Part shown: in pieces, positions 7,645-55,385 of the stretch | Numbering within the stretch: position 1 is the stretch's first letter | Layout: every line of letters begins with the position of its first letter | Source of the DNA: a virus | Virus record (IMG/VR): IMGVR_UViG_3300021077_000115 | Span: 238,064 to 302,063 of that record | Strand: one strand, 5' to 3' | DNA: 64,000 nt | Program-made: the position numbers and the translations under genes | The notes under the pieces: model-generated | What the model was told of the DNA's origin: nothing | The model's input: only the letters and a program-made list of their open reading frames with translations | Databases searched by the model: none

Positions 7645-7667
7645 CACTATCAACTATAGTTGTCAAA

Positions 7668-11229: not shown

Positions 11230-11235
11230 AACATC

Positions 11236-20344: not shown

Positions 20345-20356
20345 AGTTCTCCTATA

Positions 20357-20620: not shown

Positions 20621-20623
20621 ATA

Positions 20624-28413: not shown

Positions 28414-29373
28414 TTACATATTTAGCACATATTTATTGCTAACGTACCACTGGCAAGTTTGGGCAATCCCGTCTCTGAATTTGAATTGCGGATTCCATCC
28501 AAGAGTCTTTATCTTATCATTAGACATAGCTAATCTACGATCAAAATTACTCTCGACGTGTTTGATTAACTCATGACCTTTACCAATGGTATTACAAATC
28601 ATCTGAACAACTTCCAGATTGCTAAATTCCTGCTTAGAAGTTATATTGTATATCTCTCTATCAACCCCATTATCAATGATGCTAAATAACGCAGAGCATG
28701 TATCAAATACATGTGTCCACTCTTTAGTATGAGCACCCGAATCATTGATGTTTATATTTTCTTCACTTATATATCTATCATTCAATATACAATCAATAAT
28801 TCTTGGTATTAGATTAGATGCAGTCTGCCATGGACCATAGTTATCACTCAGACGAACAATATTGTAGTGCAAACCTGATAGCCCATAAAAACTAGAAGCC
28901 TTCACCAACAACTCACCAGCCGCTTTTGTAGCAGCAAAGGTTCCTCGCGGATTTGGAGTATCTAATTCATTATATGGGCTATCGTTCTCAGACTTTAGTT
29001 CGCCATATATATTATTGTCGCTGACATAAACCAATCTAGCATCTATTTTCATGCATTCATTGATAATATTTTGCGTTCCAACAAGATTACTACTTACCAT
29101 GGAGGCTTCATCTTTTGATTCTGCGGCTCCATGGATAACAATATCTGGGCGTTCCTTCTCAAATATTACATGTAGGGTATGAGCATCTCTAACATCTGCA
29201 ATATAAAACGAATGATCGGTATTTACGTAGATGTTATGAATAATATGAGAGTCTCGCACCCTATCCATACTAGAAATGGTGTAGGGCAGTTTCGAATAGA
29301 AAACTTGCCGAATGAAGTTCCCGAAAATAAACCCCCCCGACCCCGTGATCAACAATCGCCTTCTTTTAGCCAT
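28414..29373 (-). CDS. RmlB-like (dTDP-glucose 4,6-dehydratase family) extended SDR protein with substituted catalytic residues. Possibly a pseudo-enzyme.
   Basis: It aligns by eye to RmlB along its whole length (LLITGSGGFIFGN / IVIHGAAESKDEAS / PRGTFAATKAAGELLVKA...NYGP / DRRLAMSNDKIKTLGWNPQFKFRDGIAQTCQWYVSN). The YxxxK catalytic Tyr is replaced by Phe (FAATK). The TDE triad is replaced by SDN (VSDNNIYG). The third Gly of GxxGxxG is replaced by Phe. Confidence 0.65.
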   Translation of the reverse strand: MAKRRRLLITGSGGFIFGNFIRQVFYSKLPYTISSMDRVRDSHIIHNIYVNTDHSFYIADVRDAHTLHVIFEKERPDIVIHGAAESKDEASMVSSNLVGTQNIINECMKIDARLVYVSDNNIYGELKSENDSPYNELDTPNPRGTFAATKAAGELLVKASSFYGLSGLHYNIVRLSDNYGPWQTASNLIPRIIDCILNDRYISEENININDSGAHTKEWTHVFDTCSALFSIIDNGVDREIYNITSKQEFSNLEVVQMICNTIGKGHELIKHVESNFDRRLAMSNDKIKTLGWNPQFKFRDGIAQTCQWYVSNKYVLNM

Positions 29374-29460
29374 TAAATAATCCCTTTTTATACATCTCTC
29401 TTAATGTATCTATACTTCTTCCAAAATATACTGGACATATATCTTTGACGCCTTGATATG

Positions 29461-29523
29461 TCACAATGCTACAACCAAAATACCACCACTGCCAGTTACC
29501 AGAACTTTCTTTCTCTTAGCCAT
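29461..29523 (-). pseudogene. 20-codon stub resembling the 5' end of an SDR epimerase/dehydratase gene, which is a truncated paralogue of the start of the downstream gene
   Basis: ATGGCTAAGAGAAAGAAAGTTCTGGTAACTGGCAGTGGTGGTATT...TGA encodes MAKRKKVLVTGSGGILVVAL*. Compare MAKRRRLLITGSGGFIFGN at the start of 28414..29373. Its ATG overlaps the TAA of the upstream gene (TAATG). Confidence 0.4.
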
Positions 29524-31070
29524 TAGGTCCTTAGTATCTCATCTTTAATTGACTTCAAATGGAACAGTATTTTCTTTAGTTTGCTTATACGTGGCAACTT
29601 TGCCTCAAAGGCTTTCAAATCAGCCAACAGAGATGGTGGTTCCACCAGCTTCGCCATCTTTTCATTTGCCATGAACATAACTTCTACGTCAGTAACATTA
29701 CGAAGTGGAGATGAGAATGGTTGTGTGCTTGGTGTGAAAGCTGAAACACCTCGCTTACCTTTATCATTAGGGTTCAGCCTATTTTGACCAATACCAAAGC
29801 GATTCTCATACGCCTCAATGGCCTTTTTATATTCGGCAACAACCTCGGAAGCTTTCTTGACGAAGCGCGGTTTTATTCCATCCTGTTCTACGCGCCTAAA
29901 ATTGCCAGCATGCTTCTGTTTCCTATATTCAGAAGTAAACTTACTCTGAGATTTCGCATTAAGTTCTTCCTTAATGGTTGGCTGTTTAGTAATTGGCAAA
30001 TCAATATTAGTTATCACGGCCATATTTCTAGCTGATTCAGGATCTATTCCAGCACGAACTAATGATTTTACATACTCATCATTTCCACGTACTGCCACTG
30101 ATACCAGCTTACCACGATCAGGAAAGGTTATTTTTTCAACTACCTTACCATCTGCTGATTTCACCTCTTTAGTATCATTGAATGTCGAGTTGATTTTATT
30201 TGCCAACTCCTTCAAGATGCGAGCCTCTTCTGTTTCAGTGTTTTTTATCGCTCTCTCCAAAACCTCACTTATAAATTTGACATCAATAACCTTAGAGAAT
30301 GCCAAATTATTTTCCACCAAAAGAGCAGATAGCAAGAAGCCAAAATTTCCTTTATGCCCAGCCTTATACTCATCAACTTGTCTCGGATGTGCCGCCATCA
30401 CTTTCATGCATAGAGGAATCAATTTAATCTCTTCCAAGATACGCTCATCTTCGGCATCTCGAATGCTTTCAGCATTTTTGCGAGTTATTTCAGACTTAGA
30501 TAATTGAACGAATTTATATCTGAATTTTGTACACACCCCATCCTTATCTGCAGATGTTGACAAAACTTCATAACGACATCCTGTCAGACCAACCAATACA
30601 TCGCCATTTTGAATTAAACTAGAGGTTGTCCAACCTCCAAACTCAGAATCAAATCTAACTTTTGTGATGCCAAGATTTTTCTCAGACCTAACCACGTTAA
30701 CCGTTTCACCTGCCTTTTCCAAAAGTGAATCCAAATGTTCACGCTCACGCCTGAGGCGAAGCTTATTAGCTTCGGCCTCTGACTTCTCAAAATCAGCACG
30801 CAATTTATCCCTATAAGAAGATGATAATGGCAGCTCTAGTTCTGATATTGGTAGCTGGAATGGATAGAAACCATCCATAAAGGAAAGGCGTGGGTGTTTT
30901 TCAGTAACAATCTTTGGCAAAGAATTAAGATCGGGATAGCTCGCCTTGAGAACTTCCCAGCTAATCTGGACGGTAAGTTTTCCATTACCTTCTATGATAT
31001 TAATGTCTGAAATATTTACGTTGCTAGGTATTGTATTACCAATGACCTGTTTAATAGTTGAAAGATCCAT
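29523..31070 (-). CDS. hypothetical Lys-rich protein (515 aa)
   Basis: Long ORF in operon orientation. I recognised no motifs. Confidence 0.5.
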   Translation of the reverse strand: MDLSTIKQVIGNTIPSNVNISDINIIEGNGKLTVQISWEVLKASYPDLNSLPKIVTEKHPRLSFMDGFYPFQLPISELELPLSSSYRDKLRADFEKSEAEANKLRLRREREHLDSLLEKAGETVNVVRSEKNLGITKVRFDSEFGGWTTSSLIQNGDVLVGLTGCRYEVLSTSADKDGVCTKFRYKFVQLSKSEITRKNAESIRDAEDERILEEIKLIPLCMKVMAAHPRQVDEYKAGHKGNFGFLLSALLVENNLAFSKVIDVKFISEVLERAIKNTETEEARILKELANKINSTFNDTKEVKSADGKVVEKITFPDRGKLVSVAVRGNDEYVKSLVRAGIDPESARNMAVITNIDLPITKQPTIKEELNAKSQSKFTSEYRKQKHAGNFRRVEQDGIKPRFVKKASEVVAEYKKAIEAYENRFGIGQNRLNPNDKGKRGVSAFTPSTQPFSSPLRNVTDVEVMFMANEKMAKLVEPPSLLADLKAFEAKLPRISKLKKILFHLKSIKDEILRT

Positions 31071-31117
31071 ACTTTTGTATATATCTATACTTTCGCCACC
31101 ATTTCAGCTTCATGGCA

Positions 31118-32110
31118 TCATTTTGAGCGTTCGATATGAGCTAATCTGGCCCCATAGAATCTGGCGGCCCTCTGTGACACCTTATACCAATTGATGGTTT
31201 CTATCAGCCCATCAATTAATGACGTCCTGGCTTCAAATCCTAAAATCTCTTTAGCCCTAGACACATCAAGGCATCTACGAGGTTGCCCATCTGGATTTTC
31301 ATAGTCGTAAATAATAGTTCCTTTATATCCAACAATATCACAAACAGCAGTTACGACCTCATGAATGCTGGTCTCCACCCCAGTGCCAAGATTGATTATT
31401 AGATTAGTATTTAGCTCTCGTTGAATTGCAAGCAACAAATAATGACTAACATCCTTTGCAAAAATAAAGTCTCTAGTAGCCTTTCCGGTTCCCCAGATAT
31501 TAACACTATCTTGATTGAGATAATGGGCATCGCATACTTTTTTAACTATAGCCGGTATTACATGAGAGTTCTCTAGATCAAAATGATCTTTTGGCCCAAA
31601 TATATTTGATGGAAGAAAGAACACAGAGTTTAATCCATATTGATCCCTATATTTCTCTCCAAGAACAAGTAATGCCTTTTTGGCAAAAGAATATCCACTA
31701 TTAGAGCGGTCCTCTCTCCCATTCCAAAAATCATCTTCTTTAAATGGAGTTGCGCAATTTAATGGATAACCACAAGCAGATCCGCAATTGTATACATTCT
31801 TAATTCTATCCAAATTAGCTTCAATTCCAGAATATAAATTTATACCCATCAACAAGTTTGTATGAGTTAAATTTGCTGGTCTGCGTTTATTCAATCCAAT
31901 CCCACCAACAAAGGCAGCTAAATGTAAGATAGTATCGAAATCATTGCTCTTGAAATAGTCAAGAACGCCACCAACATTTGTAAGGTCCAATTCCTTTGAT
32001 GATGGTGTTAAAATATCCAAACCATTATTAACAGCTTCTTCAACGACATGCTGCCCAAGAAAGCCAGAGGCTCCAGTAATTAATATTTTCACATCACCTC
32101 CATATTCCAT
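31118..32110 (-). CDS. fcl: GDP-L-fucose synthase (GDP-4-keto-6-deoxy-D-mannose 3,5-epimerase/4-reductase)
   Basis: VKILITGASGFLGQHV Rossmann motif. CGSACGYP matches Fcl GSSCIYP. YSFAKKALLVLGEKYRDQYGLNSVFFLPSNIFGPKDHFDLENSHVIPAIV matches Fcl [20 protein letters not shown]...PTNLYGPHDNF...SHVIPAL. Confidence 0.75.
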   Translation of the reverse strand: MEYGGDVKILITGASGFLGQHVVEEAVNNGLDILTPSSKELDLTNVGGVLDYFKSNDFDTILHLAAFVGGIGLNKRRPANLTHTNLLMGINLYSGIEANLDRIKNVYNCGSACGYPLNCATPFKEDDFWNGREDRSNSGYSFAKKALLVLGEKYRDQYGLNSVFFLPSNIFGPKDHFDLENSHVIPAIVKKVCDAHYLNQDSVNIWGTGKATRDFIFAKDVSHYLLLAIQRELNTNLIINLGTGVETSIHEVVTAVCDIVGYKGTIIYDYENPDGQPRRCLDVSRAKEILGFEARTSLIDGLIETINWYKVSQRAARFYGARLAHIERSK

Positions 32111-33042
32111 GCATCTAATATTTCCAACTCTCTTTCACTTACAATTCCATTATTTACCAAAGATATATATATATGATTCATGTTTTGAACCTTATTTTCT
32201 CCCAAATGGCACCTGTCCAATATCTCTACTGTTCTTTCCACATCGGAATACATCTGGATTTCATCCACAAAATCCTTCATATAATCTTGCCTAAATCTAT
32301 TTTGATAGACTATAGATTTAGAAAATCCCAAATACAAATTGTCCTGTCTTAGTAATCTTTGTGCGATGTAAGATCTGAGTATATCAGCGAATCTCCAAGA
32401 TACAGTTGACGGGAAATACATATATTGGAAACATTCTTTATTCCAGAATGTACTTTGAGAATTGAATGGGGCATAAGAATTACTATCCAATACAAATGGA
32501 TATTTTACATCAAAATTCAATTGATGATTGAAAACCAATCGGTAGATAGCATCGACATCAGGGTCCTGGTCTATTAGTGTTTGCCATATACCAACCTTTT
32601 TACTATCTCTATTCGACATAGTGTATGTAATGTTTTTATTGATATAACTTAATGGAAATCCCCTATTCCAAATTTTCTCATTTGAAAGATATCCATATAT
32701 ATTGGCAAATTTCTCAGAGCTTGATAATACATTATCGCACACAAATCCAGTATCAAAATTCCATGAGTCGTATGGAATGTTATCATCATCTGTTTCGTAA
32801 ATTATGTCGCTACCACAGCGCATAGCCATTAGATATCCTAAGTTCTTTCGACTATAGCGATTTGGCCCAATCATATTTGATAGTTTTGAATTTTCTTCAT
32901 AACGCAAAAATTCAATTTGTGCATCATTATATTCTGGAGTTTTCTTATCACCAACAAGAATAAGCTTCCAATTAGGGATATTCTTGAACTTATAAATTGA
33001 TTCTGTTTCAGAGTTTATTGTGGTTATGATTGTGCTATTCAT
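32089..33042 (-). CDS. hypothetical protein, possibly a DXD-type glycosyltransferase
   Basis: It has a DDD motif (IIYETDDDNIPYDSW) and lies inside the glycosyltransferase cluster. I cannot assign a family. Confidence 0.35.
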   Translation of the reverse strand: MNSTIITTINSETESIYKFKNIPNWKLILVGDKKTPEYNDAQIEFLRYEENSKLSNMIGPNRYSRKNLGYLMAMRCGSDIIYETDDDNIPYDSWNFDTGFVCDNVLSSSEKFANIYGYLSNEKIWNRGFPLSYINKNITYTMSNRDSKKVGIWQTLIDQDPDVDAIYRLVFNHQLNFDVKYPFVLDSNSYAPFNSQSTFWNKECFQYMYFPSTVSWRFADILRSYIAQRLLRQDNLYLGFSKSIVYQNRFRQDYMKDFVDEIQMYSDVERTVEILDRCHLGENKVQNMNHIYISLVNNGIVSERELEILDAWNMEVM

Positions 33043-33370
33043 TGTATATTTTTACGCTATCCTCAAATAGCGATTTACCTTCTATGATAGATTTTTCAAT
33101 CAATTTATTAATGGCCTCTACTAACCTTGGTCGCTTTTGTTTGAAACAGATATCTATTTTTCTTTTCAATGCCCCTAATTCCTGATCTGATATGTCTTTA
33201 TGAATCAAATCTTCAAGCATCCAGGTTCGAATGTGAACTATAATTAGCTTGTCAAGAACTTCCCCTAAACTATCAGTCTCAATATATTCTTTAGCTTCAG
33301 GAATCTCTTTCTTACCACAGATTTCTGCAACATACTCTTTTATCCGCAAATCTATAATGTCCTTTGGCAT
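33035..33370 (-). CDS. hypothetical protein (111 aa)
   Basis: ORF in operon orientation. Confidence 0.4.
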   Translation of the reverse strand: MPKDIIDLRIKEYVAEICGKKEIPEAKEYIETDSLGEVLDKLIIVHIRTWMLEDLIHKDISDQELGALKRKIDICFKQKRPRLVEAINKLIEKSIIEGKSLFEDSVKIYNE

Positions 33371-33375
33371 ATAAA

Positions 33376-34185
33376 TTACAATCCTTTTATTTCTTGTTTG
33401 ATCATTTCAGGAGATACGAGTTTTATTTTTAGATTACTAAATGTAACACTTGATGAAAAAAACAGAGGATGCCGTTCACAAAGACATGCACAGTTTTTTA
33501 TGAGCAATAGCTTTGAATCACAACAAATCTGGCAAACTGCACCACCTCCACTTGCTGGTGAAATAATTACATTGCATAAAGGATGATGCATAACAGATGC
33601 CCAATCTTGCAAGTTATCAAGATATGTTACGCCTTTGTCTTTCCAAACCCTTTCAGATCCAATTCCAAAAACAAATACCTGGCTATATTTTGATTTAAGC
33701 ATATCTATAACTGATCGATAATAATAATCATTTAGATTTCTATCAGAACACCAATTTCTAATTCTAATCAAAACTCCTGCAAATTTTTTGGAAATATGAT
33801 ATTTTTCTTCAACATTTGAATAGTCAACTTTCAAAATATCATCTTTACATTCTGGATATTTGTAATGATCAATTTTACCGCAACTATATTCGTCATGTAA
33901 TTCCCCAAGATCTTCAAATTTACAAACACGATCTTCTGTATATTTAAAGACATCTTCTGTATCCGGTAGGTCTTCAATCCCAATAACATTCTTGGCTATT
34001 TTTGTATATAGGAATTTTCTATCGGCTATGGTAACGACAACATCATCTGGAGTCCATATCCCTTTATGCAAATCTCTAATATACGCCAATCTAGAGACCA
34101 TAAGTTCCCAGCCGAGTTCAGTATAGTTTTCTGTTGTTCCAATATCAGATTTTTGGCCAGTACCAGTTATTATATATGTCATCAA
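33376..34185 (-). CDS. hypothetical protein (269 aa), Cys-rich C-terminal region
   Basis: ORF in operon orientation within the glycan island. Confidence 0.45.
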   Translation of the reverse strand: MMTYIITGTGQKSDIGTTENYTELGWELMVSRLAYIRDLHKGIWTPDDVVVTIADRKFLYTKIAKNVIGIEDLPDTEDVFKYTEDRVCKFEDLGELHDEYSCGKIDHYKYPECKDDILKVDYSNVEEKYHISKKFAGVLIRIRNWCSDRNLNDYYYRSVIDMLKSKYSQVFVFGIGSERVWKDKGVTYLDNLQDWASVMHHPLCNVIISPASGGGAVCQICCDSKLLLIKNCACLCERHPLFFSSSVTFSNLKIKLVSPEMIKQEIKGL

Positions 34186-35265
34186 TTACCTCGAATCTGC
34201 TAAGCTCTCAACCATAGTTACTAATTTATCAGTCAGGAAATTCCAATCATTATCCTTGCGATCAAGATGAGTTTGAATTAGTTCTTGTCTTATTTTGTAA
34301 TACTCATCTTTGAAATCATTACTCAAAAGTCTCTTTAGATTGGCTAGATTTTGATCTTGGCGCGCAGGGTCATATGTCCACTTCAGGATATCGTGACCAT
34401 ATGGATCCCACCACTCTTCGTGGCCAAATAGCGGAAGTCCTTGGCAAAGGAACTCATTAGCAAAGTATGGAAACCCTTCTGAATATGAGGTGTGTGCCAA
34501 ATATGCAAAATCGGATAATATCTCTCTAACCGCTCTGTCTGTTTTGTAAATGTGACTTATCACATTATACGATGAACTGTCAAAGTTGTTTGACTTTAGC
34601 ATATCTATGAGCTGTTCTGCATTTTTGCCACCAGCATCTTTCCCACCTCTATTATAGATTAGCATTTTCAATTTAGATAATCTAATATTTCTATTATAGA
34701 ATGTAGAGAAATAGGCTTTGTCTATTGGGTGCGGAACTAGCTCTATATTTTGTATGCTTGATACTAGTAATTGTTTCGTTTCAAGCACATCAATATTATC
34801 TGAATTCCATTTGCGTATTGCTACATCATTAGTTTTGAAGATTGCGCCATAAAGCCCTTCAAGTAAAGATGGGTGAGTGGGATATGTATTAGATCCTATT
34901 CCATACTTATTGAATTTACCATACTTCCACTTATCAACTTCAAAATTATCGTTGTCAATAATAATTGAGCGCTCAGGAAACTTTTTCAATTGGTAAGAGG
35001 GGCGTGCAGAAATGAATACATCTTTATTTGTCATTTGTATTTCATTTTTAGGTAATACAAACTCTTCAGTTGGCCCATTTTTCCAATTGGTATATATTGT
35101 ATTCTTTGGAAATTTTGCTAATATAGAATTGTATACAAAATATGTTATCTGATCCCATGAACATCTTCTGCCATGCAAATAACCATTTGGATTTTCTGGA
35201 GGTAATGATATGTAGATATTCATAACCTTATCCACTCTGGAGGTGCTAGGTCTGTTGTTGACCAT
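34186..35265 (-). CDS. hypothetical protein (359 aa)
   Basis: ORF in operon orientation within the glycan island. Confidence 0.45.
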   Translation of the reverse strand: MVNNRPSTSRVDKVMNIYISLPPENPNGYLHGRRCSWDQITYFVYNSILAKFPKNTIYTNWKNGPTEEFVLPKNEIQMTNKDVFISARPSYQLKKFPERSIIIDNDNFEVDKWKYGKFNKYGIGSNTYPTHPSLLEGLYGAIFKTNDVAIRKWNSDNIDVLETKQLLVSSIQNIELVPHPIDKAYFSTFYNRNIRLSKLKMLIYNRGGKDAGGKNAEQLIDMLKSNNFDSSSYNVISHIYKTDRAVREILSDFAYLAHTSYSEGFPYFANEFLCQGLPLFGHEEWWDPYGHDILKWTYDPARQDQNLANLKRLLSNDFKDEYYKIRQELIQTHLDRKDNDWNFLTDKLVTMVESLADSR

Positions 35266-36005
35266 GCGCTATAAGCGGGACCAAACCAATTGCTAGGCGC
35301 AACAACTACCTTATCTTCTGCCTTACTTAACCACGCCGCCCACCAAGAAAAAGAACTATTTGCTATAATGAAATCGGAACAACTAACCATTTTACTGAAA
35401 TCAGAAATTGTAGAAGATGTCTCGTTTATAGTAAACTCATTGCCCTTGAAGTTTTGTTTGCACCATTCAGTATCATCAGAAAATACCATGAATTTCTTCG
35501 TTGGAATCTTTTCTGCTGCACTCATATAATATTGCATCGTTTGAGTTGGATGATGCTTTGGATAGTTTAAATAATCTCCACGGCGAACATGAATACAACA
35601 ATAATCCTTCATGTCTTCAACTGGAATTGGCGATAATATTTCTTTGATGTAATCCTTGCAATTATCAAAGTATCTCCAGCTTTGAAAATAACCAGATAAT
35701 GAACAGTTATTCTGAAATGGTATCTCTACATAATGATACCCAGATTCTTTGTATTGTGTAGATATCTTAATAGAAGACTTATCAATAAAATACTCGTCTG
35801 GTATGTTTGTCCAACTTTGAAATTCCCATTTTGGAAAGCAAAACTGAACATTGTATCTCTTCGCATATCCAATAGTTGCAGCTATCTGAAATAAGGAATT
35901 ACCAAATCGACCATGATGCCCAAGTTCAATAAATGTAGCTGTCATATCATCTATCCATGATTCTCTTGTATGGAAGCATCGACCTGATTCTTCTTTCTGT
36001 TTCAA
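35220..36005 (-). CDS. alpha-1,2-fucosyltransferase-like glycosyltransferase (GT11 family)
   Basis: CIHVRRGDYLNY carries the HxRRxD motif I that is diagnostic of GT11 fucosyltransferases. The conserved C-terminal hydrophobic/aromatic region is also present. Confidence 0.65.
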   Translation of the reverse strand: MKQKEESGRCFHTRESWIDDMTATFIELGHHGRFGNSLFQIAATIGYAKRYNVQFCFPKWEFQSWTNIPDEYFIDKSSIKISTQYKESGYHYVEIPFQNNCSLSGYFQSWRYFDNCKDYIKEILSPIPVEDMKDYCCIHVRRGDYLNYPKHHPTQTMQYYMSAAEKIPTKKFMVFSDDTEWCKQNFKGNEFTINETSSTISDFSKMVSCSDFIIANSSFSWWAAWLSKAEDKVVVAPSNWFGPAYSAWSTTDLAPPEWIRL

Positions 36006-36705
36006 TTTGCAAACTTCGGTCTACTTTCGCTTCATTAATTGGCGATGTATAATTGTATACATATAATACATCTGGTATAAATGATTGCTTAGGACCGGCA
36101 AGCTCAAGCATTGGGAACATAGTAGCCAAATCTCCAGCCGCCCTAAACCAATCACCTTTGTACATCAAATCTTCTTTGCGTATCATCTTGTAAAGCCAAG
36201 CATAATGAGTTCTTAAGTGAGATGAACACCATTGATAGCGCCTAAACATATTGGAATCAATTATGTTCTTAGGTATCTCACACGAAAATCCATGACTATT
36301 ATCTGAATATGATATCCATTGACCATAGGTAATCCATATATCTTTTTCATTGTACTCTCTATTTACACGAGTCAATACATCATTGTTTGCAAGCCAATCA
36401 TCACCATCTAACAGAACAACAATCTCGTCATCATCACAACTATGTATCATGTTGTATGTATTACCAATTGGTAATAGACGTTTAGTATTTCTAGTCAGAA
36501 TAATTTTATGATTATTGTCATGCTTGGAGATAATGCGTTCTACCTCATCGGCGGTCCCATCAGTTGAACAATCATCTGCATAAATAATCCTAAAGTCTGG
36601 ATAATTCTGGTTCAAGGCAGAAAGAAGATTCTTCTCGCACCAATCTATATTTTGATAGCTTGGAATTACAATAACAAATCGATTAACTTTTGACATACAA
36701 AGCAT
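35947..36705 (-). CDS. glycosyltransferase family 2
   Basis: VIVIPSYQNIDWCEKNLLSALNQNYPDFRIIYADDCSTDGT is the GT2 N-terminal motif. The DxD is VLLDGDDW. Confidence 0.7.
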   Translation of the reverse strand: MLCMSKVNRFVIVIPSYQNIDWCEKNLLSALNQNYPDFRIIYADDCSTDGTADEVERIISKHDNNHKIILTRNTKRLLPIGNTYNMIHSCDDDEIVVLLDGDDWLANNDVLTRVNREYNEKDIWITYGQWISYSDNSHGFSCEIPKNIIDSNMFRRYQWCSSHLRTHYAWLYKMIRKEDLMYKGDWFRAAGDLATMFPMLELAGPKQSFIPDVLYVYNYTSPINEAKVDRSLQIETERRIRSMLPYKRIMDR

Positions 36706-37366: not shown

Positions 37367-38252
37367 CGAGATTTTATATGAAGGACCAGAGGGGAAGGTA
37401 TATTATTCGCCTACTAGAAAAGAAAGAATGCCAAATATTTTTCAAAGCCTATGCAACAACCCAAACCCAAATGATAGCGCTCTTATGGCTGAACCAATAG
37501 TAGTCTCACCAGGAAACTACGATGTTAATTATCTGTCAAGGTTCAGGAAAGTATTTGGATGTTTTGAAAAAGCTTTCGAAAACACCAAAATCAAAGAAAA
37601 ATATGTGTGCGTAAATTATGGATATGATTTGAAAATTCACTCTCCATTATTGCAAATAGATGCAGAATCTATAAGAGAAAATTGGAAATCATGGAACCAA
37701 CGCAACGGAATGATTGTTATTGCCGGTGGTAGTAAGAATTCCACACATCAGGCATCAATTTATTGCCTAAGATTAATGATTGCAGATTTGTTCTATCAAA
37801 ACAATTTTGAAGTAGCATGGTATGGTCAGCAACACTGCAATAGACCATATTACAAAGGAGCGGTTCACGACAAAATTAGTGAAATAGGCAAATACAAGTT
37901 TGTAATATGTTCTGAAAATACATATGACCCAATTTATTCACATAATTATCTAACAGAAAAATTACCTCATGCTATTTACGGAGGAGCTCTTCCTCTTTAT
38001 ATTGGCTGCTATAATATAGATGACCTTGCACCTAAACATACATTTTTTGATCTGAGAAATTTTGTCTTACAAAATTACGGCCAAGTAACACTATTAAAAG
38101 AACCATTGCTAGAAGCTATAAAATCATTTAGTCAAGAAAATTTCGAACGATATCAAGAGGCAGCATATCAATTCATAAAAGATCCTCTTGGTATTAATTA
38201 TCATATGGATCCTAATAGAGTTTACAAAAAAATGTTAGATACATTACAATAG
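37329..38252 (+). CDS. alpha-1,3-fucosyltransferase-like glycosyltransferase (GT10 family)
   Basis: KYKFVICSENTYDPIYSHNYLTEKLPHAIYGGALPLYIG matches the GT10 signature YKFYLAFENS..pDYiTEKlw.nal.aGaVPVvlG. Confidence 0.7.
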   Translation: MDINIVYDAIKTTEILYEGPEGKVYYSPTRKERMPNIFQSLCNNPNPNDSALMAEPIVVSPGNYDVNYLSRFRKVFGCFEKAFENTKIKEKYVCVNYGYDLKIHSPLLQIDAESIRENWKSWNQRNGMIVIAGGSKNSTHQASIYCLRLMIADLFYQNNFEVAWYGQQHCNRPYYKGAVHDKISEIGKYKFVICSENTYDPIYSHNYLTEKLPHAIYGGALPLYIGCYNIDDLAPKHTFFDLRNFVLQNYGQVTLLKEPLLEAIKSFSQENFERYQEAAYQFIKDPLGINYHMDPNRVYKKMLDTLQ

Positions 38253-38969
38253 ATTGAATATCTTATTCAATTCATTGTTATACTTCGAATATGGCCTAAC
38301 CGAATGAATATCATAATAGTAACCTTTGCTAACCAATTTTCTATCGTATCTCCAAGTTGAGCGATCTATCCTGTGCCCATTCTGACCGCCATCTCGCTGA
38401 ATGAAATGAAACAGTGACTTATACTCATAATTATTTATTAGCATTGTTGAAGATACTTCATCAACAGACCAATGCTCATTACCATCATGGTTAGTATTAA
38501 TTCCATTTGAGGATATAATTGCTTTATCTATATACATATCAAAATCAACATTCCCAAGAACCTTGCTGTAAGTATTCCCAGATGCAATATGATAGCAAGC
38601 CGGGATATTGTTTGCACATGGGTTTATGTGAACGTATTTATCGTTCGAGATCTGCTCTAGTTGAGTATTGAAGTAAAAATTTGACAGCGGATACATATCA
38701 ATATCAGAAATAATACCAATCTTATTTCCAAGTTGTGTCGCATACCAATACCTAACAATTTGACATTGTAAAGATATTGAAAATCTTGGAATTGGCTTTA
38801 TTCTAATTACATTACCATATTCTTCTGATATATTAATACTCTCGTTATCTTCTATATAAAGCAATATAGGGTTTATATTCAATCTTCTCCATGCTTTAGA
38901 CACAGAAGGCCAAAAATCCAAATAGAATGAATTTGAGTTAGAACTATTTATAGCAACATCTATTTTCAT
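38244..38969 (-). CDS. hypothetical protein (241 aa)
   Basis: ORF coupled (ATGA-type overlap) to the UDP-xylose synthase gene. Confidence 0.45.
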   Translation of the reverse strand: MKIDVAINSSNSNSFYLDFWPSVSKAWRRLNINPILLYIEDNESINISEEYGNVIRIKPIPRFSISLQCQIVRYWYATQLGNKIGIISDIDMYPLSNFYFNTQLEQISNDKYVHINPCANNIPACYHIASGNTYSKVLGNVDFDMYIDKAIISSNGINTNHDGNEHWSVDEVSSTMLINNYEYKSLFHFIQRDGGQNGHRIDRSTWRYDRKLVSKGYYYDIHSVRPYSKYNNELNKIFNLL

Positions 38970-39901
38970 TACAAGATTTTCCTAAAATAAGATATAGTCT
39001 CCTTAAGCCCATCATCTATATTTACGGATGGCTCCCAAGAAAGTTTGTTCTTAGCCAAGCTAATATCTGGTTTACGTTGCTTTGGATCATCCTGCGGAAG
39101 AGATTTGAATATCAGTTTCGACTTAGCTTTAGTCTGAGTCAATATCTTCTCTGCTAGCTCTAACATCGTAAACTCACCAGGATTTCCCAGATTGATTGGT
39201 CCGGTAAAGCCAGCCTCTGTATCCATCATGCGCAACATGCCTTCCACCAAATCATCAACATAACAGAAAGAACGTGTCTGCCTGCCATCTCCATAGATTG
39301 TGATGTCCTCACCACGTAAGGCCTGCACAATGAAATTGGAAACTACGCGCCCATCGTTTGGATGCATTCGAGGCCCATAGGTATTGAATATCCTAATCAC
39401 TTTGATATCAAGGTTATGCTGCCTGTGATAATCGAAAAACAATGTCTCGGCACAGCGCTTACCCTCATCATAACAACTGCGAATGCCAATCGGATTAACT
39501 CGGCCCCAATAACTTTCAGGCTGGGGATGTACCTCAGGATCACCATAGACTTCTGAGGTTGAAGCCTGAATAATGCGTGCTTTGACTCGTTTAGCCAGGC
39601 CAAGCATGTTGATGGCCCCGTGTACGGATGTTTTGGTCGTTTGCACAGGGTCAAACTGGTAGTGCACTGGGGATGCTGGGCAGGCTAGATTGAAAATTCG
39701 CTCAACTTCAACATACAGAGGAAATGTCACATCGTGTCGCATCATTTCAAAAAGTGGATTATTAAGCAGATGAGCAATGTTCTTCTTGGTACCCGTGAAG
39801 TAATTGTCCACGCAAAGAACTTCGTTCCCAGACTTCAACAGACGTTCACATAGATGCGAGCCAATAAATCCAGCGCCGCCAGTGACCAAAACTTTATTCA
39901 T
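38969..39901 (-). CDS. UDP-glucuronate decarboxylase (UDP-xylose synthase, UXS/ArnA-like SDR)
   Basis: [37 protein letters not shown] is highly characteristic of UXS. The catalytic Y-x-x-x-K is [15 protein letters not shown] is also present. Confidence 0.85.
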
Positions 39902-39903
39902 AA

Positions 39904-40731
39904 TTATCCTTTGAATGGAATATGGATTGGCTTAAAGTGATTCATATACAATCCACAATTCTTCTTGAAAGCATCTACAAGCTCATCATGTTGCTGAGTT
40001 TTGAATTTACGATATTCATTTACCTCACCATTATCCTCACCCAAATGAATGCCCATCTTTTCAACGTATCCCATCTTAAAGTTGGCAACTCTGGCGCGAA
40101 TTCCAAAATCGCTGTCCTCAAGGCCATACTTATTGTACTCAGTATTGAAGAAGCCTATCATTTGGTGTAGCTGTTTGCGAAACACCATACAGGCCGTTCC
40201 CAAATTACCAGCTGGCTTATCCTGGAAGACGCAGCCATTATGAGTTACCAAAGGATAGGATTTTGGTTCGAAGTTTACCCCAATAGCGCCATAGCCTTTA
40301 TTGGACTCCAGAATTTTGATGCTGTCCTCTAACCATCCATTTGGTAGTTGAACATCATTATCAATAGTGCAATACCAAGTTGGCTTCAATTCATCAGCCT
40401 TCTTTAGGGCTAGATTGCGACCAATGGCAATACCCTTATTCTCTGGGAGCAGAATCAACTCTACTTCTTTCAATGGGTCTTTGTCGCGGCCAGGGGCCAT
40501 CATTGAGCTGGCAAGTTTTAACTTCTTGAGATATTCCGGGGTTCCATCACTTGATCCGTTATCTACTATTACAAGAGAAAATGGATGTTTCGTGCTACTA
40601 GATAAAGCAGCTACCGTCTTTTTGGTAAGATCAAGCCGATCATATGTTACCATCATTAAAACAGTGTCAGTTTTCATTATTTTTCCTTTCATGCGGACAA
40701 TAACCATAGGATCCGCGAGATACAGCGGCAT
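39904..40731 (-). CDS. glycosyltransferase family 2
   Basis: [40 protein letters not shown]. The DxD is TIDNDVQL. Confidence 0.7.
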
Positions 40732-40734
40732 CTG

Positions 40735-41694
40735 TCATAAGCCCTCGCAAATCCCAAACACATCTATCGGAGATACATGTCGATCTGTAAATATATCATT
40801 GTTCACCCCAAGAAATTCGGCATTTTTAAACAAACTATACTGATTGTCCAGGTGTCTCGAAATAAGTTTGGCATCTGATATAATAAGAGAAATCAACAAC
40901 CAATTAATATCATTTGATAATACCATCCAAGACTTCTTGATTGTTTGTAATATGTTTCTTAGACTATATTCAATTGCCAATATATTTGTTCCATAAAAGG
41001 CGCTGGTTTTATGTGTAAACACAATAACTTTCCAACCCTTATGAGATGCCAGTTGAGAAAATTCTTTGATGTTCTGTAAGTTCCATCTTAGGATATCTTT
41101 ATTGGTATTGCTTAAGACAATAGATATAACTTTGGTAGTTTGCCTAACTCTACCAGTGTTATGCAGCTCATCAAAGAATTCTGTTCCAAGACCACGAAGC
41201 TTTGGGACATAATTTCTCCAAGGAATCATGATATTTCCAGACATCTGTTCTAAAACAGGAGCCTTAACGACATCCGGATACTTTCCCCAATAACTTTTGC
41301 GAACCAGATAGTTGTTCAGGATGTTTAGGTAGGCATTACCACCGTTATCTAAGAATAACGGAACTGGATACTGCTTCAATATCTCTGGCGTTAGTTTGAC
41401 CGGACTGATCTTGCATAATCCCTGAGCCCTAACAAAAAACGAATACTCAGGATTGCCAAGCCAATAAATCTTGTGAGAAGAATCAAAAGATACAAGAGCT
41501 TCAGCTGCGCTCAAAGAGAAAAACGATTCTAACAAACCGCCGAATGCAGCAATTATAATCTCACGACCATCCAGAACTTTATGCCAAGTTTCGAAATCAA
41601 TTTCTGGAATAATATACTTTCCATTACTCAATTTCCAGGGAATTCCTGGTGAAAATGGAAAGAACCTAGACCTGTATTTCTTTTTCGGCTTCAT
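40735..41694 (-). CDS. putative glycosyltransferase (GT9/heptosyltransferase-like fold?)
   Basis: The N-terminal REIIIAAFGGLLESFFSLSAAEAL and the central ISIVLSNTNK...W...FSQLASHKGWKVIVFT loosely resemble GT9 blocks. This is a weak call. Confidence 0.3.
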   Translation of the reverse strand: MKPKKKYRSRFFPFSPGIPWKLSNGKYIIPEIDFETWHKVLDGREIIIAAFGGLLESFFSLSAAEALVSFDSSHKIYWLGNPEYSFFVRAQGLCKISPVKLTPEILKQYPVPLFLDNGGNAYLNILNNYLVRKSYWGKYPDVVKAPVLEQMSGNIMIPWRNYVPKLRGLGTEFFDELHNTGRVRQTTKVISIVLSNTNKDILRWNLQNIKEFSQLASHKGWKVIVFTHKTSAFYGTNILAIEYSLRNILQTIKKSWMVLSNDINWLLISLIISDAKLISRHLDNQYSLFKNAEFLGVNNDIFTDRHVSPIDVFGICEGL

Positions 41695-42485
41695 TAGTCG
41701 TCATACTTGTAAATCCCAGACCATTTACTTCGAAATAACTTTGCATTAGTACCCATCATTAATTTGTGCATTGGGTTCTTCTTTAAAGTTGCGCTTTCCT
41801 CATGGAATACATTGGTCTTACCACAATACATAATCTTCTTATTCATGCCATACTTTACAGATAAGCAGGCATCGATGTCTTCGAATGACCAGAAGAAGCC
41901 CTCGTCCATTCCAACTCTACCGCTCTTGTTTGAAATGCAGATCCTCCTATAATCGCCAGCCCGAATCAAGACCAATGCTCCAGTTACGGCTTGGAATTCA
42001 CGATTCTTCTTAGCACTTTCATCGGCCACTTCTTGATGCCGATAATGGTATGGGAAATAGTTATACTTCTTGGAAAAATACACACCAGCATGCTGAAGCT
42101 TTTGCCCATCCGGATACAATATCCTAGCGCCAACCATACCTACATCATCAGTTAGCAACTTGAACATTTCCACAACCGAATTCTTGTCATTGAACCACAA
42201 ATCATTGTTGAGCAGCATGATAACGTCATCATCAGCCGGCTTGGTTCGTTCAAATAGAACGTTCATTCCACCAGCAAATGAATCTGTATTGTGGCCACAG
42301 AAAAATGTATCCACTCTATCGCTTTGTATTGACGACAGATACTCAGCCGATCCATCCTTTGAACCATTATCCTTGATCCACCATTTGTAATCATACATCT
42401 CAACGGCTGGTATGAGAGATTTGTAAAGGCGCTCTATTTTTTCCTTAGCGTTCCAATGAAGCGTAAATATCATCAATTTGCTCAT
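41694..42485 (-). CDS. glycosyltransferase, GT2-like
   Basis: The N-terminal Rossmann-like region WIKDNGSKDGSAEYL is followed by the DxD-type motif VIMLLNNDLWF. Confidence 0.5.
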   Translation of the reverse strand: MSKLMIFTLHWNAKEKIERLYKSLIPAVEMYDYKWWIKDNGSKDGSAEYLSSIQSDRVDTFFCGHNTDSFAGGMNVLFERTKPADDDVIMLLNNDLWFNDKNSVVEMFKLLTDDVGMVGARILYPDGQKLQHAGVYFSKKYNYFPYHYRHQEVADESAKKNREFQAVTGALVLIRAGDYRRICISNKSGRVGMDEGFFWSFEDIDACLSVKYGMNKKIMYCGKTNVFHEESATLKKNPMHKLMMGTNAKLFRSKWSGIYKYDD

Positions 42486-43477
42486 AAAGAAACCCTCTCT
42501 GTAATTTTACATTGCTTTTCGTGACAATGAGGACACCAAGTCCCAATATTCCTGACGCTGTGCATTGTAGCCAGCCATTCATGGCCTGACTTACATTTCC
42601 ATCGCAACTTTTTATTTGCCGAGACGTATTCATCGGACAAACAAAACCCACCTCGATTAGAGGCCACAAACTTAGCATCGTCTAATGTTAGTTTCTTCAA
42701 ACCGCAACAAGACGGACACCAACTTCCATTTTCTATAGAATACCCAACCGCACTCCATGTGTGGCCATGTTCACATTGCCAAACCAATGGCTCATGAAAA
42801 TTAATATACGCATCAGATAAACACTTACCATATCTTTCAGACGCCAAATCCTTGTAATAACCAAGCCTATCAAAACCACCTTGAAGCTTAGACATATCTA
42901 CATGTATATTGTTAATGCTTGCTGGCAATGATATCCTCAACCTTTCGCACTCTTTGACCAAAAATTCACCAAGATCCTTTAGCTTAATTTCTCTAAATAT
43001 CTCGGGTATAATCATCAGCTTAACTCCAAGTTCTCTGCATTTATTGGCCTTGAACAAATCTCTCGACTTTTGCTTATTCAACGAAGATCCGTCGCGATGA
43101 AAGTATGGTACATTTGTATTGTGCTGAACTCCATTGTGTTCAAAAGCAATGGCCAACTCATGACAATATCCGTCAAGCTCTAAATTATATTTGCTGTGTT
43201 TCAGCCAAGCTGGCCGTATCTTTACAAATGGCTTTCCGAATATAGCCTCTAAATACAATCTACAAATACCCTCCCCAATATTTGAATTGCATTGGTTGCA
43301 CCAAGACTTATAATATTGGATATGCTTCCAAGCCAGAGAAAACGCATGTCCAAATTCACACTCCCACATCAATGGCTTATTTGCGTTTATATAAATGCTA
43401 CTAAGGCACTTGCCGTTTTTGGATTTGGCAAGTTCATTACAGTCGTTGATTGTTATCTTCCTATATTGATTAGACAT
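42482..43477 (-). CDS. protein with three tandem zinc-ribbon repeats (DUF4379-like 'probable zinc-ribbon' domain)
   Basis: Three repeats: KCLSSIYINANKPLMWECEFGHAFSLAWKHIQYYKSWCNQC / KCLSDAYINFHEPLVWQCEHGHTWSAVGYSIENGSWCPSCC / FCLSDEYVSANKKLRWKCKSGHEWLATMHSVRNIGTWCPHC. Confidence 0.55.
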   Translation of the reverse strand: MSNQYRKITINDCNELAKSKNGKCLSSIYINANKPLMWECEFGHAFSLAWKHIQYYKSWCNQCNSNIGEGICRLYLEAIFGKPFVKIRPAWLKHSKYNLELDGYCHELAIAFEHNGVQHNTNVPYFHRDGSSLNKQKSRDLFKANKCRELGVKLMIIPEIFREIKLKDLGEFLVKECERLRISLPASINNIHVDMSKLQGGFDRLGYYKDLASERYGKCLSDAYINFHEPLVWQCEHGHTWSAVGYSIENGSWCPSCCGLKKLTLDDAKFVASNRGGFCLSDEYVSANKKLRWKCKSGHEWLATMHSVRNIGTWCPHCHEKQCKITERVSL

Positions 43478-43510
43478 AGCATTCCTATCAGTAAGAATAT
43501 ATAATTATGC

Positions 43511-44191
43511 CTATTTATTGCCCCATATTTCTATAAACGTTTTCTTAGACTTCAAATACAGATCTGATAATACTTTCTTCCCGGTAACTCTGCCAATGTG
43601 TCTGACAGGCACATCAACAACTTTAAACTCAATACCAAGGCCCTTAGCTCTAAAGGATAGGTCAGTATCCTCGAAGTAAGATATGAACTTAGTAGAAAAT
43701 GGACCAACATCGCCTTCTAGAATCAAACGATCCCAAGTAGCAACAGAGGCAGTGATATTCCATCCGCTTAGGTAGAAAAGAAACCCAGTCGTAGGAAGCT
43801 TGTTCATCTCACGAACAAAGTTCAAATGAATATCTAACAGCCCAATGGTTGGACCTACAAGGAACCCATTTTGAGCCTCACGAATAATAGGCTCTGTCCA
43901 CACAGAATTTTCCTCGGCAATACGAATATCATTGTTGAGGAACATTATGTTTTCATAACCGAGACTGACAGCCCTTTCGTAACCAGTATTGCACCCCTTA
44001 GCAAACCCAAGATTCTTGGAATGTCGTACGACAGACAATCTGGCTGATGATTGTAGTTGTTTGGTACTGTCTGTGCTTCCATTATCCACTACAACAAACC
44101 CATGGTCTTGTGGAAGATGGGATAGATCTGATAATGCGCGCTTTGTATATGCCCAATTGTTCCAGGCCGGAATAACGATAGCTAAACTCAT
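43511..44191 (-). CDS. glycosyltransferase family 2
   Basis: LAIVIPAWNNWAYTKRALSDLSHLPQDHGFVVVDNGSTDST. The DxD is FLNNDIRI. Confidence 0.65.
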   Translation of the reverse strand: MSLAIVIPAWNNWAYTKRALSDLSHLPQDHGFVVVDNGSTDSTKQLQSSARLSVVRHSKNLGFAKGCNTGYERAVSLGYENIMFLNNDIRIAEENSVWTEPIIREAQNGFLVGPTIGLLDIHLNFVREMNKLPTTGFLFYLSGWNITASVATWDRLILEGDVGPFSTKFISYFEDTDLSFRAKGLGIEFKVVDVPVRHIGRVTGKKVLSDLYLKSKKTFIEIWGNK

Positions 44192-44203
44192 TTATTTCTC
44201 CAT

Positions 44204-45325
44204 TCAAGGTACGCACATGTCTATAATTTTTTGGGCTGCATTATTCCAAGTGAACTTGCTAGCAGTATCTGTCATATTTTGAGCAAACCCAGCTTTCAAT
44301 GAATCTAATTCAAATACAGCCCTTCGAAGTTTTTGGGCAGCGTCATCAGTATCAATCTCAAAATGAACAGCAAATGGATTGAATGCCCAATATTGATGAT
44401 CTCTTGGTGCCCTTGTGATTGTGCCATCTATAAGAATAGAATTCTCATCATTACAGAAATCTAGTTGTCCACCATATCTAGGAACTACATTAACAATTCC
44501 AGAAGCTAGAGCTTCCAATGATGGTAGATGCCAACACTCAGCATAAGTAGCAGAGAAATTTATATCACAAGACTTATAGATGTCTGCGATATTTGTTATA
44601 TATGAATGGACAAACTCTACTTCGGCGTGCTGTGGAAACTTAGATTGAAAAGTTTTAAACAACGCAGTGAAGTCTATGTCAAATGGATGGTCTTTCTTGT
44701 TATGCTTGAATACTTTAGCTATCAAACATACATCATCATCCTTGGTAAAAGCTTTACCAAAAGCCTTAAGAGCTAAATGTAATGCTTTGCGCCGATGTGG
44801 CTGGGCAATATTAAGAAGTATCTTCTTTGTCTTCCTAGTATTTAGCTTGAATGTATTATCACTCTTGAAATCTTCAAGATTTATTCCATGAGGAACTACC
44901 ATCATCTTTTCTATGGGGATACCCATACTAATAAATACATCTCTAGAGAAATTAGATGAAGGAAGAACAAGGTCAGTTGATTTGTAAAACTTAGAAAAAC
45001 CTTGAAGTAATGCTAAGTACTTATCATCTGACCTTTTATTGTTGTATTCGTAATTCCAAATACCAAATCTATTCTTTGTACCCCATTTAAGATAATTTGG
45101 CCAATTATGAGGTGCTGTGTAGCTAATTTGGCAGTCATATAATCCAGATGGTTCTTGTTTAACAAATGGCATTATATCCTCTGGTATAAATCTCTTTTCA
45201 AGTCCATCTGTAGAAATAAACTCTACATTATGTCCTAACTTAATAAGTGATCTGCCTAAATTCTGCCCAACCACACTCCAACTATGATTTTGGCCAAATA
45301 GAAATTGTTGGATTTTTATTCTCAT
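44204..45325 (-). CDS. GT-B glycosyltransferase (GT4-like C-terminal domain)
   Basis: The C-terminal ECWHLPSLEALASGIVNVVPRYGGQLDFCNDENSILIDG resembles the GT4 E-x7-E region. Confidence 0.5.
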   Translation of the reverse strand: MRIKIQQFLFGQNHSWSVVGQNLGRSLIKLGHNVEFISTDGLEKRFIPEDIMPFVKQEPSGLYDCQISYTAPHNWPNYLKWGTKNRFGIWNYEYNNKRSDDKYLALLQGFSKFYKSTDLVLPSSNFSRDVFISMGIPIEKMMVVPHGINLEDFKSDNTFKLNTRKTKKILLNIAQPHRRKALHLALKAFGKAFTKDDDVCLIAKVFKHNKKDHPFDIDFTALFKTFQSKFPQHAEVEFVHSYITNIADIYKSCDINFSATYAECWHLPSLEALASGIVNVVPRYGGQLDFCNDENSILIDGTITRAPRDHQYWAFNPFAVHFEIDTDDAAQKLRRAVFELDSLKAGFAQNMTDTASKFTWNNAAQKIIDMCVP

Positions 45326-48574: not shown

Positions 48575-48576
48575 AT

Positions 48577-55374: not shown

Positions 55375-55385
55375 TACTACCTAAT

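Follow-up and report, generated by a model that had tools for sequence, protein, structure and literature searches.

A phage-encoded glycan island in a fixed slot between the tail-fiber and tubulin genes of a huge tailed phage

The 64,000-nucleotide stretch of viral DNA analyzed here, referred to as the window, covers positions 238,064 to 302,063 of the IMG/VR virus record IMGVR_UViG_3300021077_000115 and carries, at 28414..45325, a 17-kb island of 19 consecutive, tightly packed open reading frames (ORFs), all of them intact and all on the minus strand except for the GT10 gene at 37329..38252 (+). The ORFs were assigned by Pfam and NCBIfam profile searches, PDB sequence searches, PHROG searches, and fold searches. 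The assignments comprise a UDP-glucuronate decarboxylase (UXS) and a GDP-L-fucose synthase-type enzyme (Fcl), two families of fucosyltransferases, at least seven other glycosyltransferases, and one FkbM methyltransferase, and on this basis we interpret the island as a phage-encoded glycan toolkit with the predicted end-steps of GDP-fucose and UDP-xylose synthesis. A preliminary description made from the sequence had counted 18 genes where there are 19 ORFs; its main family calls were reproduced by the Pfam, NCBIfam, PDB, and fold searches. The features of the island and of the genes that anchor it on either side, the interval between which is called the slot below, are as follows.

27005..28399, minus: PhuZ/FtsZ-like tubulin (TIGR00065, 2e-11; phrog_4733), downstream anchor of the slot
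28414..29373, minus: RmlB-like extended short-chain dehydrogenase/reductase (SDR), last gene of the slot
29523..31070, minus: uncharacterized protein of 515 aa, in the position of the C-terminal extension of Fcl in the related locus L004
31118..32092 (ORF 31118..32110), minus: Fcl/GMER, GDP-L-fucose synthase-type epimerase/reductase
32089..33042, minus: STELLO-like (DUF288-type) putative glycosyltransferase (PF03385, 1.5e-9)
33035..33370, minus: small DUF4254 protein (PF14063, 3e-10)
33376..34182, minus: uncharacterized protein of 268 aa
34186..35265, minus: uncharacterized protein of 359 aa, with a GT-B-like C-terminal motif recognized by eye only
35220..35945 (ORF 35220..36005), minus: GT11 alpha-1,2-type fucosyltransferase
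35947..36696, minus: GT2 glycosyltransferase of the variable cassette (PF00535, 1e-17), with orthologs only in L008/L002, L010, and L011
36683..37294, minus: FkbM-family methyltransferase (PF05050, 7e-15; TIGR01444, 6e-16)
37329..38252, plus: GT10-type fucosyltransferase
38244..38969, minus: D-x-D protein of 241 aa, from a family of 954 representative clusters
38969..39901, minus: UXS, UDP-glucuronate decarboxylase, of the variable cassette
39904..40731, minus: GT2 glycosyltransferase with a GT7-C-like segment (PF00535, 1e-15; PF02709, 5e-5), with 50-77% identical orthologs in L008-L012
40735..41694, minus: GT9-fold GT-B glycosyltransferase, assigned by fold match
41694..42485, minus: core GT2 glycosyltransferase (PF00535, 7e-9), with 45-82% identical orthologs in all relatives, including L007
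42482..43477, minus: homing endonuclease with treble-clef zinc ribbons
43511..44191, minus: core GT2 glycosyltransferase (PF00535, 1.4e-12), with orthologs in all relatives, including L007
44204..45325, minus: core GT-B glycosyltransferase, GT4/GT1-like
45575..58643, minus: structural genes for fiber-like proteins of 999 and 2265 aa and a gp6-like baseplate wedge of 1085 aa, upstream anchor of the slot

The UXS protein aligned over its full length with human UXS1 (PDB 4gll and 2b69) at 408 bits, compared with 147 bits for the next family, and its GxxGxxG NAD-binding motif and its catalytic STSEVYGD and YDEGKR motifs align identically with those of UXS1. The earlier assignment thus holds, and the enzyme is predicted to convert UDP-glucuronic acid (UDP-GlcA) to UDP-xylose (UDP-Xyl). 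Among the matches listed, metagenome and bacterial UXS proteins were 84-93% identical to it, and UXS of named genomes from many bacterial phyla were 73-86% identical. On the basis of these identities, the gene is of bacterial type and was probably captured from bacteria fairly recently. True UXS-level matches were present in only ∼10 phage records, and an ortholog was absent from every related locus compared. We rejected the use of UXS for a host call, given that the 73-86% range extends across many phyla and metagenome-assembled genomes of Myxococcota were best only by a margin.

The Fcl protein matched NF047922, the NCBIfam GDP-L-fucose synthase family, at 237 bits (77 bits for the next family), and its 18 best PDB matches, at no more than 184 bits, were all GDP-fucose synthases. 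The catalytic residues are kept, with GSACGYP, YSFAK, and NSHVIPA aligning with GSSCIYP, YAIAK, and SSHVLPA of 7ll6, so that the Ser-x-Cys, YxxxK, and SHV motifs are conserved. These results agree with the earlier Fcl call. Because the score does not reach the NCBIfam equivalog cut-off (500 bits), the exact product is uncertain, and the enzyme is predicted to make GDP-fucose (GDP-Fuc) from GDP-4-keto-6-deoxymannose, or a close 6-deoxyhexose. Its identity to Fcl from the relatives is only 39-44%, and the closest relative has no counterpart. When the window was searched by tblastn with the GDP-mannose 4,6-dehydratase (GMD) of a relative, no GMD was found, and Pfam and PHROG scans of ORFs of at least 140 aa likewise gave none; in the relative L004, a GMD is present and adjoins Fcl. 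The substrate GDP-4-keto-6-deoxymannose must therefore be supplied by the host or by another part of the phage genome, as the preliminary description had held.

Both fucosyltransferase families named in that description were recovered. The GT11 protein matched Pfam PF01531 at 104 bits (1.1e-29), well above the gathering (GA) cut-off of 23.9, and contains the sequence IHVRRGDY (HxRRxD). It is 34-36% identical to cyanophage GT11 genes, and homologs were present in 103 phage records, nearly all of them cyanophages. GT10 was the weakest of the family calls: its match to PF00852 is marginal (26.2 bits, GA 23.9) and is backed by an AlphaFold (AF2) model with a pLDDT of 95. A Foldseek search with this model returned GT10 enzymes as the top PDB matches: the Helicobacter pylori alpha-1,3-fucosyltransferase (2nzx/2nzw), AtFUT11 (9s6a), mango FucT13 (7yro), and human FUT9 (8d0w), with TM-scores of ∼0.5. 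Invariant positions in the alignment of homologs are E55, R148, E196-N197, Y207, E210, and K211, and the conserved E, R, and Y-x-x-E-K are arranged as in the H. pylori enzyme. The product is a candidate alpha-1,3/4-type fucosyltransferase that would use GDP-Fuc. Only 57 homologs were found among 5.8 billion clusters, most of them with PF00852; several sit on contigs of 130-460 kb, the subfamily occurs mostly on large phage-like contigs, and it had no match in 50,697 GenBank phage records. The related locus L010 carries two tandem GT10-like copies (20131-21051 and 21078-21983), each ∼48-50% identical to the window GT10.

The preliminary description regarded the combination of GT10, GT11, GDP-fucose, and UDP-xylose as eukaryote-like. 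That origin was rejected on the identity of UXS to UXS of many bacterial phyla. The GT10 and GT11 families are found in bacteria as well, and the same pairing, of bacterial type, occurs in the Lewis-antigen fucosyltransferases of H. pylori (GT10, PDB 2NZW; GT11, FutC); the window GT10 model is nearest to 2NZW/2NZX, yet the identity is ∼14%.

Related loci were examined on IMG/VR contigs of 131-336 kb, and in every relative the interval from the 999-aa fiber-like gene to the tubulin gene is the glycan slot. Its length is ∼5 kb in L007 compared with 16-17 kb in the other relatives. L007, the most distant (35-49% identical), keeps the GT4-like gene, two GT2s, and the SDR, and all of the closer relatives keep the GT9-fold protein and the GT2/GT7C protein; neither of the latter two had an ortholog that we could detect in L007. 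The dN/dS values of the core genes were 0.07-0.13, similar to those of their neighbors and indicative of purifying selection, in a set that excludes the GT11 versus L002 row on account of mis-registered coordinates. GT10, GT11, FkbM, and one GT2 are patchy among the relatives. Six ORFs have no ortholog in any of them, namely UXS, the 241-aa D-x-D protein, and the four ORFs (STELLO-like, DUF4254, 268 aa, and 359 aa) of the block at 32089..35265, which is unique to the window phage among the relatives. The closest relative, L002, carries instead a DegT aminotransferase, a second FkbM gene, and two homing endonucleases. The slot thus combines a core that is conserved with a cassette whose content changes from one related phage to the next.

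The core begins with the GT4-like gene, the first after the 999-aa fiber-like gene. Its Pfam matches (Glycos_transf_1 and Glyco_transf_4) are barely over GA, and the PHROG match is to the glycosyltransferase family phrog_2170 (4e-32); the orthologs are 65-81% identical in L008-L012 and 39% in L007, with a dN/dS of 0.07. The four GT2s noted earlier were each confirmed by Pfam, and the island GT2s show weak NCBIfam similarity to glycosyltransferases of exopolysaccharide (EPS) and O-antigen synthesis (WcaE, TuaG, EpsD, and a rhamnosyltransferase). The product of 40735..41694 had no Pfam or NCBIfam match. Its closest structures are the lipopolysaccharide (LPS) heptosyltransferases WaaC and WaaF, and there is a further resemblance to TibC, a heptosyltransferase of the cytoplasm whose acceptor is a protein, so the earlier suggestion of a possible GT9-like enzyme stands at the level of fold, nearest to GT9 structures, but not as a match to a GT9 sequence profile. 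The FkbM gene, called as 203 aa on an independent contig, was matched by both of its family profiles and probably serves in O-methylation of sugars. A further glycosyltransferase (6003-6854, minus; Pfam Glyco_trans_1_3, 6e-10) lies 22 kb from the island, beside an unannotated 233-aa ORF.

Among the less well-characterized ORFs, the STELLO-like protein scored 37.6 bits against PF03385 (GA 27.8) with partial coverage of the profile. The 241-aa protein, the start codon of which overlaps the UXS stop codon, had no Pfam, PDB, or PHROG match; D89 and D91 are invariant in its family, some members of which are fused to FkbM, RfbT, GT2, or GT1 domains, and a scan of viral contigs gave one truncated match, outside any UXS context. 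It is plausibly a candidate glycosyltransferase, and we infer that it might be the xylosyltransferase that uses UDP-Xyl. Neither the 359-aa nor the 268-aa ORF had a family, PDB, or PHROG match, and for the 359-aa ORF the viral contigs also held no relatives. The 515-aa ORF, again with no significant family, PDB, or PHROG match, aligns at 45% identity with a portion of a 385-aa L002 ORF. In L004, Fcl is fused to a C-terminal extension of ∼500 aa (6501-9011), with which the 515-aa ORF shares weak collinear similarity (E = 0.015), and this ORF may be an uncharacterized partner of Fcl.

The SDR at 28414..29373 had been put forward as the only candidate for a GMD, albeit a catalytically dead one. 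Its best family is dTDP-glucose 4,6-dehydratase (TIGR01181, 212 bits, under the cut-off of 365), and the gmd family TIGR01472 was not among its matches, so it is RmlB-like and not a GMD candidate. The loss of catalytic residues was confirmed: in the alignment with 2hun, the catalytic Tyr is replaced by Phe (FAATK for YxxxK) and the TDE triad by DNN (SDNN for STDE). Across the orthologs, all of which share an unusual GSGGFIFGN nucleotide-binding motif, Y...K is kept in L004, L005, and L006, and the Tyr is replaced by Leu in L002 and by Glu in L007; the residue is therefore lost in three of six SDR lineages. The dN/dS value relative to L002, in which the protein is also Tyr-less, was 0.126, and those of the neighboring glycosyltransferases were 0.07-0.08. 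Because dN/dS is low (0.13) between Tyr-less copies, the sequences indicate a pseudo-enzyme maintained under purifying selection rather than a decaying gene, and the protein may be a non-catalytic nucleotide-sugar binder.

One ORF of the island does not belong to the glycan machinery. The product of 42482..43477, previously listed as a triple zinc-ribbon member of the toolkit, matched the HNH endonuclease family phrog_559 (2e-33), the homing endonuclease families phrog_681 and phrog_3339, and DUF4379, and only a 39-aa remnant of it is present in the closest relative; by these matches the gene is a selfish insertion. Both the window phage and its relatives have homing endonucleases within the slot or close to it, and the lineage as a whole is unusually rich in such genes and in inteins. 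In L004 (4332-6494 and 12541-15297), the GMD carries a LAGLIDADG intein between NHE and SPRRG, and the UvsW-like helicase also has an intein, whereas the window helicase (24991-26469) is intein-free. The tubulin ortholog of L002 is a 930-aa ORF (8504-11296) with a tubulin match that is split between 8504-8749 and 10100-11293, which suggests an intein. The large subunit of ribonucleotide reductase (RNR) in the window (15752-19678, minus; 1308 aa) has an endonuclease-like insert at approximately residues 300-485, between RNR-matching segments, that is probably an intein.

The flanks place the island in the structural region of the genome. The structural flank is syntenic in all relatives, the baseplate wedge matched phrog_6 (5e-32), the 999-aa fiber-like protein (45575-48574, minus) has dockerin-type calcium-binding repeats, and the 2265-aa fiber-like protein (48577-55374, minus) has a LamG/ConA-like lectin domain; these domains are possibly carbohydrate-binding receptor-recognition modules. 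The island directly follows these baseplate and fiber genes on the same strand. Its position next to the giant fiber-like genes was thus borne out, but because all of its genes other than GT10 are on the minus strand, it is transcriptionally downstream of them rather than upstream as first described. On the other side, the tubulin orthologs are 46-80% identical.

The source is a huge tailed phage of an undescribed lineage. Its DnaB is ∼24% identical at best to that of any GenBank phage, megablast of the whole island gave no match among 50,697 phage records, and proteins identical to UXS and to the GT9-fold protein are encoded on contigs as long as 391,957 bp. Homologs of the core glycosyltransferases were present on more than 100 contigs. 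Seven contigs with the identical UXS share the arrangement of the island, including three places from three samples among the matches listed. We rejected a chimeric or bacterial origin of the island on the basis of this recurrence across samples and of its synteny in the IMG/VR relatives. All non-island ORFs of the window of at least 140 aa were scanned with Pfam and/or PHROGs, and the window genes include helicases, the ribonucleotide reductase with its endonuclease insert, and many nucleotide-metabolism genes; there are no tRNAs in the window. Accessory genes typical of huge phages encode a CCA-adding/poly(A) polymerase-type nucleotidyltransferase with an HD domain (1349-2941, plus), a GMP reductase/IMPDH-family enzyme (3618-4652, minus), a NADAR domain protein (7668-8195, minus), a methionine aminopeptidase (13448-14251, minus), and a sigma-70-family factor (19685-20344, minus). 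A 589-aa P-loop protein (22248-24017, minus) had similar PHROG scores for the terminase large subunit, a DnaC-like helicase loader, and primase.

The capsid glycans of chloroviruses contain fucose, xylose, and methyl groups, and the glycosyltransferases that make them are soluble and cytoplasmic, act with a methyltransferase and viral GDP-fucose enzymes, and are independent of the host secretory pathway. These N-glycans are assembled on the capsid by virus-encoded glycosyltransferases (PMC7826918, PMC9614988). PBCV-1 is thus like the window phage in having virus-encoded glycosyltransferases, a methyltransferase, and enzymes of the GDP-fucose pathway, but it is a eukaryotic giant virus in which the glycan and its acceptor were proven by experiment, whereas the island is known from its genes.

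The preliminary description was not aware of such a toolkit as a feature of tailed phages; this view is contradicted by a published cluster in Synechococcus phage S-SCSM1 (PMC9602691), by ∼100 cyanophage GT11 records, and by the host recognition clusters of marine phages (PMC7029224). The S-SCSM1 block (MK867354), described as a "cell wall synthesis and modification" cluster (PMC9602691), is annotated with Gmd, Fcl, GDP-mannose 3,5-epimerase, alpha-1,2-fucosyltransferase, NodZ-type fucosyltransferase, POFUT, five glycosyltransferases, and two methyltransferases. Like the island, it is a contiguous block in a tailed phage with GDP-L-fucose synthase, several fucosyltransferase families, at least five more glycosyltransferases, and methyltransferases. 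It differs in that its own Gmd, GDP-mannose 3,5-epimerase, and mannose-6-phosphate isomerase give a self-sufficient pathway, in having no UXS and no GT10, and in lying among tRNAs, 2-oxoglutarate oxygenases, and photosynthesis genes instead of beside fibers; the two phages belong to unrelated lineages, as the DnaB comparison indicates.

Pelagimyophages and cyanomyophages have in their structural region a hypervariable "host recognition cluster" of tail fibers mixed with many glycosyltransferases (PMC7029224). The window island likewise is located in the structural region beside fibers, and its content varies while the flanks remain syntenic; both are large, non-syntenic islands of fibers, glycosyltransferases, and sugar-nucleotide enzymes that vary between related phages. 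The phages with host recognition clusters, however, are T4-like with genomes of ∼150-200 kb, GT8 is dominant in them, and no conserved glycosyltransferase core was described (PMC7029224), whereas the window phage is huge, has a PhuZ-like tubulin, and has a fixed GT4/GT2/SDR core framing a UXS/GT10/GT11 cassette. The "moraphages" resemble it, as compared by description, in being large freshwater phages that have multiple homing endonucleases and a core genome in which four orthogroups are glycosyltransferases (PMC12619734). They reach 307 kb and no tubulin is mentioned in that paper, whereas the contigs that bear proteins of the window phage are as long as 392 kb. Mycobacteriophages glycosylate their capsid and tail-tube subunits with their own glycosyltransferases (Freeman et al. 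2023, as cited in PMC12619734); they differ in that their genomes are small, with few glycosyltransferases and no genes for sugar-nucleotide synthesis, and in that the host is actinobacterial. The island is therefore of a kind already described in large marine phages, although its lineage is undescribed. Less common here are UXS, the GT10 subfamily, the GT9-fold core protein, the explicit layout of core plus cassette, and the conserved dead SDR.

In the mechanism that we propose, the island would be a cytoplasmic glycan-assembly locus in a fixed slot between the tail-fiber and tubulin genes. UDP-GlcA and GDP-4-keto-6-deoxymannose would be provided by the host or by phage genes beyond the window, UXS would convert the former to UDP-Xyl, and the Fcl-type enzyme would convert the latter to GDP-Fuc. 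The core glycosyltransferases would lay down an inner oligosaccharide, to which the variable cassette would add outer residues particular to each lineage, here xylose, O-methyl groups, and fucose in two linkages. As to the acceptor, our committed guess, held at somewhat less than even confidence, is that surface proteins of the virion receive the glycan in the cytoplasm, likeliest the adjacent giant fiber proteins or the capsid. Such attachment would parallel chloroviruses and glycosylated mycobacteriophages, and the outcome would be strain-specific virion "serotypes." Virion proteins are slightly favored over the host envelope because the core has been retained, in synteny with the structural genes, among deeply diverged phages and because the system is wholly soluble. 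The island proteins contain no membrane segments, except in an N-terminal extension of the FkbM ORF that is an artefact, and no match to a priming phosphoglycosyl transferase, flippase, polymerase, ligase, or ABC exporter/transporter was found in the island with Pfam and NCBIfam, so that the priming and export genes of a Wzx/Wzy- or ABC-dependent polysaccharide cluster have no counterpart there. A fuller version of the proposal, which we regard as doubtful when taken whole, is that a huge-phage lineage glycosylates its own virion with a conserved inner glycan and an outer cassette that is swappable as in O-antigen loci, the process being cytoplasmic and free of an oligosaccharyltransferase, with the dead SDR perhaps acting as a nucleotide-sugar-binding scaffold.

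Several points weigh against attachment to the virion. No acceptor site was identified; the Fcl product could be a related 6-deoxyhexose; and the sigma-70 promoter and terminator scans, which were at the level of shuffled sequence, say nothing about operon structure or co-transcription with the fiber genes. Glycosyltransferases acting on undecaprenyl-linked acceptors also have no transmembrane segments, and the host could supply priming and export, so the absence of those functions from the island is weak evidence. This last argument leads to remodeling of the host envelope, which is nearly as likely as the virion reading and which we would likewise put short of even. In such a scheme, the glycosyltransferases would act at the inner membrane face on lipid-linked intermediates (O-antigen, LPS core, or exopolysaccharide) that the host primes and exports; superinfection would be blocked or recognition of the infected cell changed, and the cassette would track the diversity of hosts or competitors. 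The analogous islands of pelagimyophages and cyanophages, the closest known, were read in print as modifying the host O-chain or cell wall (PMC7029224; S-SCSM1 cluster, PMC9602691). The kinship of the GT2s with EPS/O-antigen enzymes, the resemblance of the GT9-fold protein to LPS heptosyltransferases, and the fusion of 241-aa family members to RfbT-type O-antigen methyltransferase domains all fit an envelope target, and dependence on host precursors fits the hijacking of an existing host pathway. Set against this are the lack of any membrane protein or priming and export gene in the island, the conservation of the core glycosyltransferases in synteny with structural genes at 35-80% identity, a pattern expected of a virion module rather more than of auxiliary genes with a sporadic distribution, and the general consideration that a lytic huge phage has little time to renew the cell surface.

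Two other explanations carry much less weight. It is improbable, in our judgment, that the slot is a partly defunct accretion, in which a recombination hot-spot seeded by homing endonucleases gathers sugar genes and only the core is functional. The endonucleases in and near the slot, the apparently recent capture of UXS with no phage ortholog in the relatives, the presence of Fcl here without the GMD that stands next to it in L004, and an SDR devoid of catalytic residues are consistent with that view; however, 19 of 19 ORFs are intact and tightly packed, UXS, Fcl, GT10, and GT11 retain their catalytic motifs, purifying selection acts on the Tyr-less SDR (dN/dS 0.13), several contigs from different samples carry the identical island, and GMD activity can be supplied by the host or by the rest of a ∼390-kb genome. 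Far less probable still is hypermodification of DNA, in which the enzymes would glycosylate hydroxymethylated phage bases against restriction, as in T-even phages. Phage glycosyltransferases can add mono- to trisaccharides to 5-hydroxymethylcytosine, sometimes with a partner sugar epimerase (bioRxiv 10.1101/2023.12.21.572611), and the window phage has many nucleotide-metabolism genes, but fucose and xylose go unmentioned in that report, and neither the island nor the other window ORFs scanned yielded a cytosine methyltransferase, a TET/5mYOX oxygenase, or a dCMP hydroxymethylase. Approximately 10 glycosyltransferases, two fucosyltransferase families, and an FkbM methyltransferase also far exceed the one or two glycosyltransferases of known DNA-glycosylation clusters, and the island sits in the structural module.

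The role of large glycosyltransferase islands beside phage tail fibers has never been shown experimentally, and the papers that describe them assume modification of the host surface. The present locus is a compact test case, with predictable donors that are detectable by lectins (GDP-Fuc and UDP-Xyl), a core with natural cassette variants, and candidate acceptors next door. It also provides enzyme material: a 57-member GT10 subfamily with no representative among deposited phage genomes, a GT9-fold family without sequence-level annotation, a DxD family of 950 clusters, and a selectively maintained Tyr-less SDR. If the glycan is indeed attached to the virion, then self-glycosylation, known from actinophages, would be a property of huge aquatic phages as well, and phage particles would undergo serotype-like diversification.

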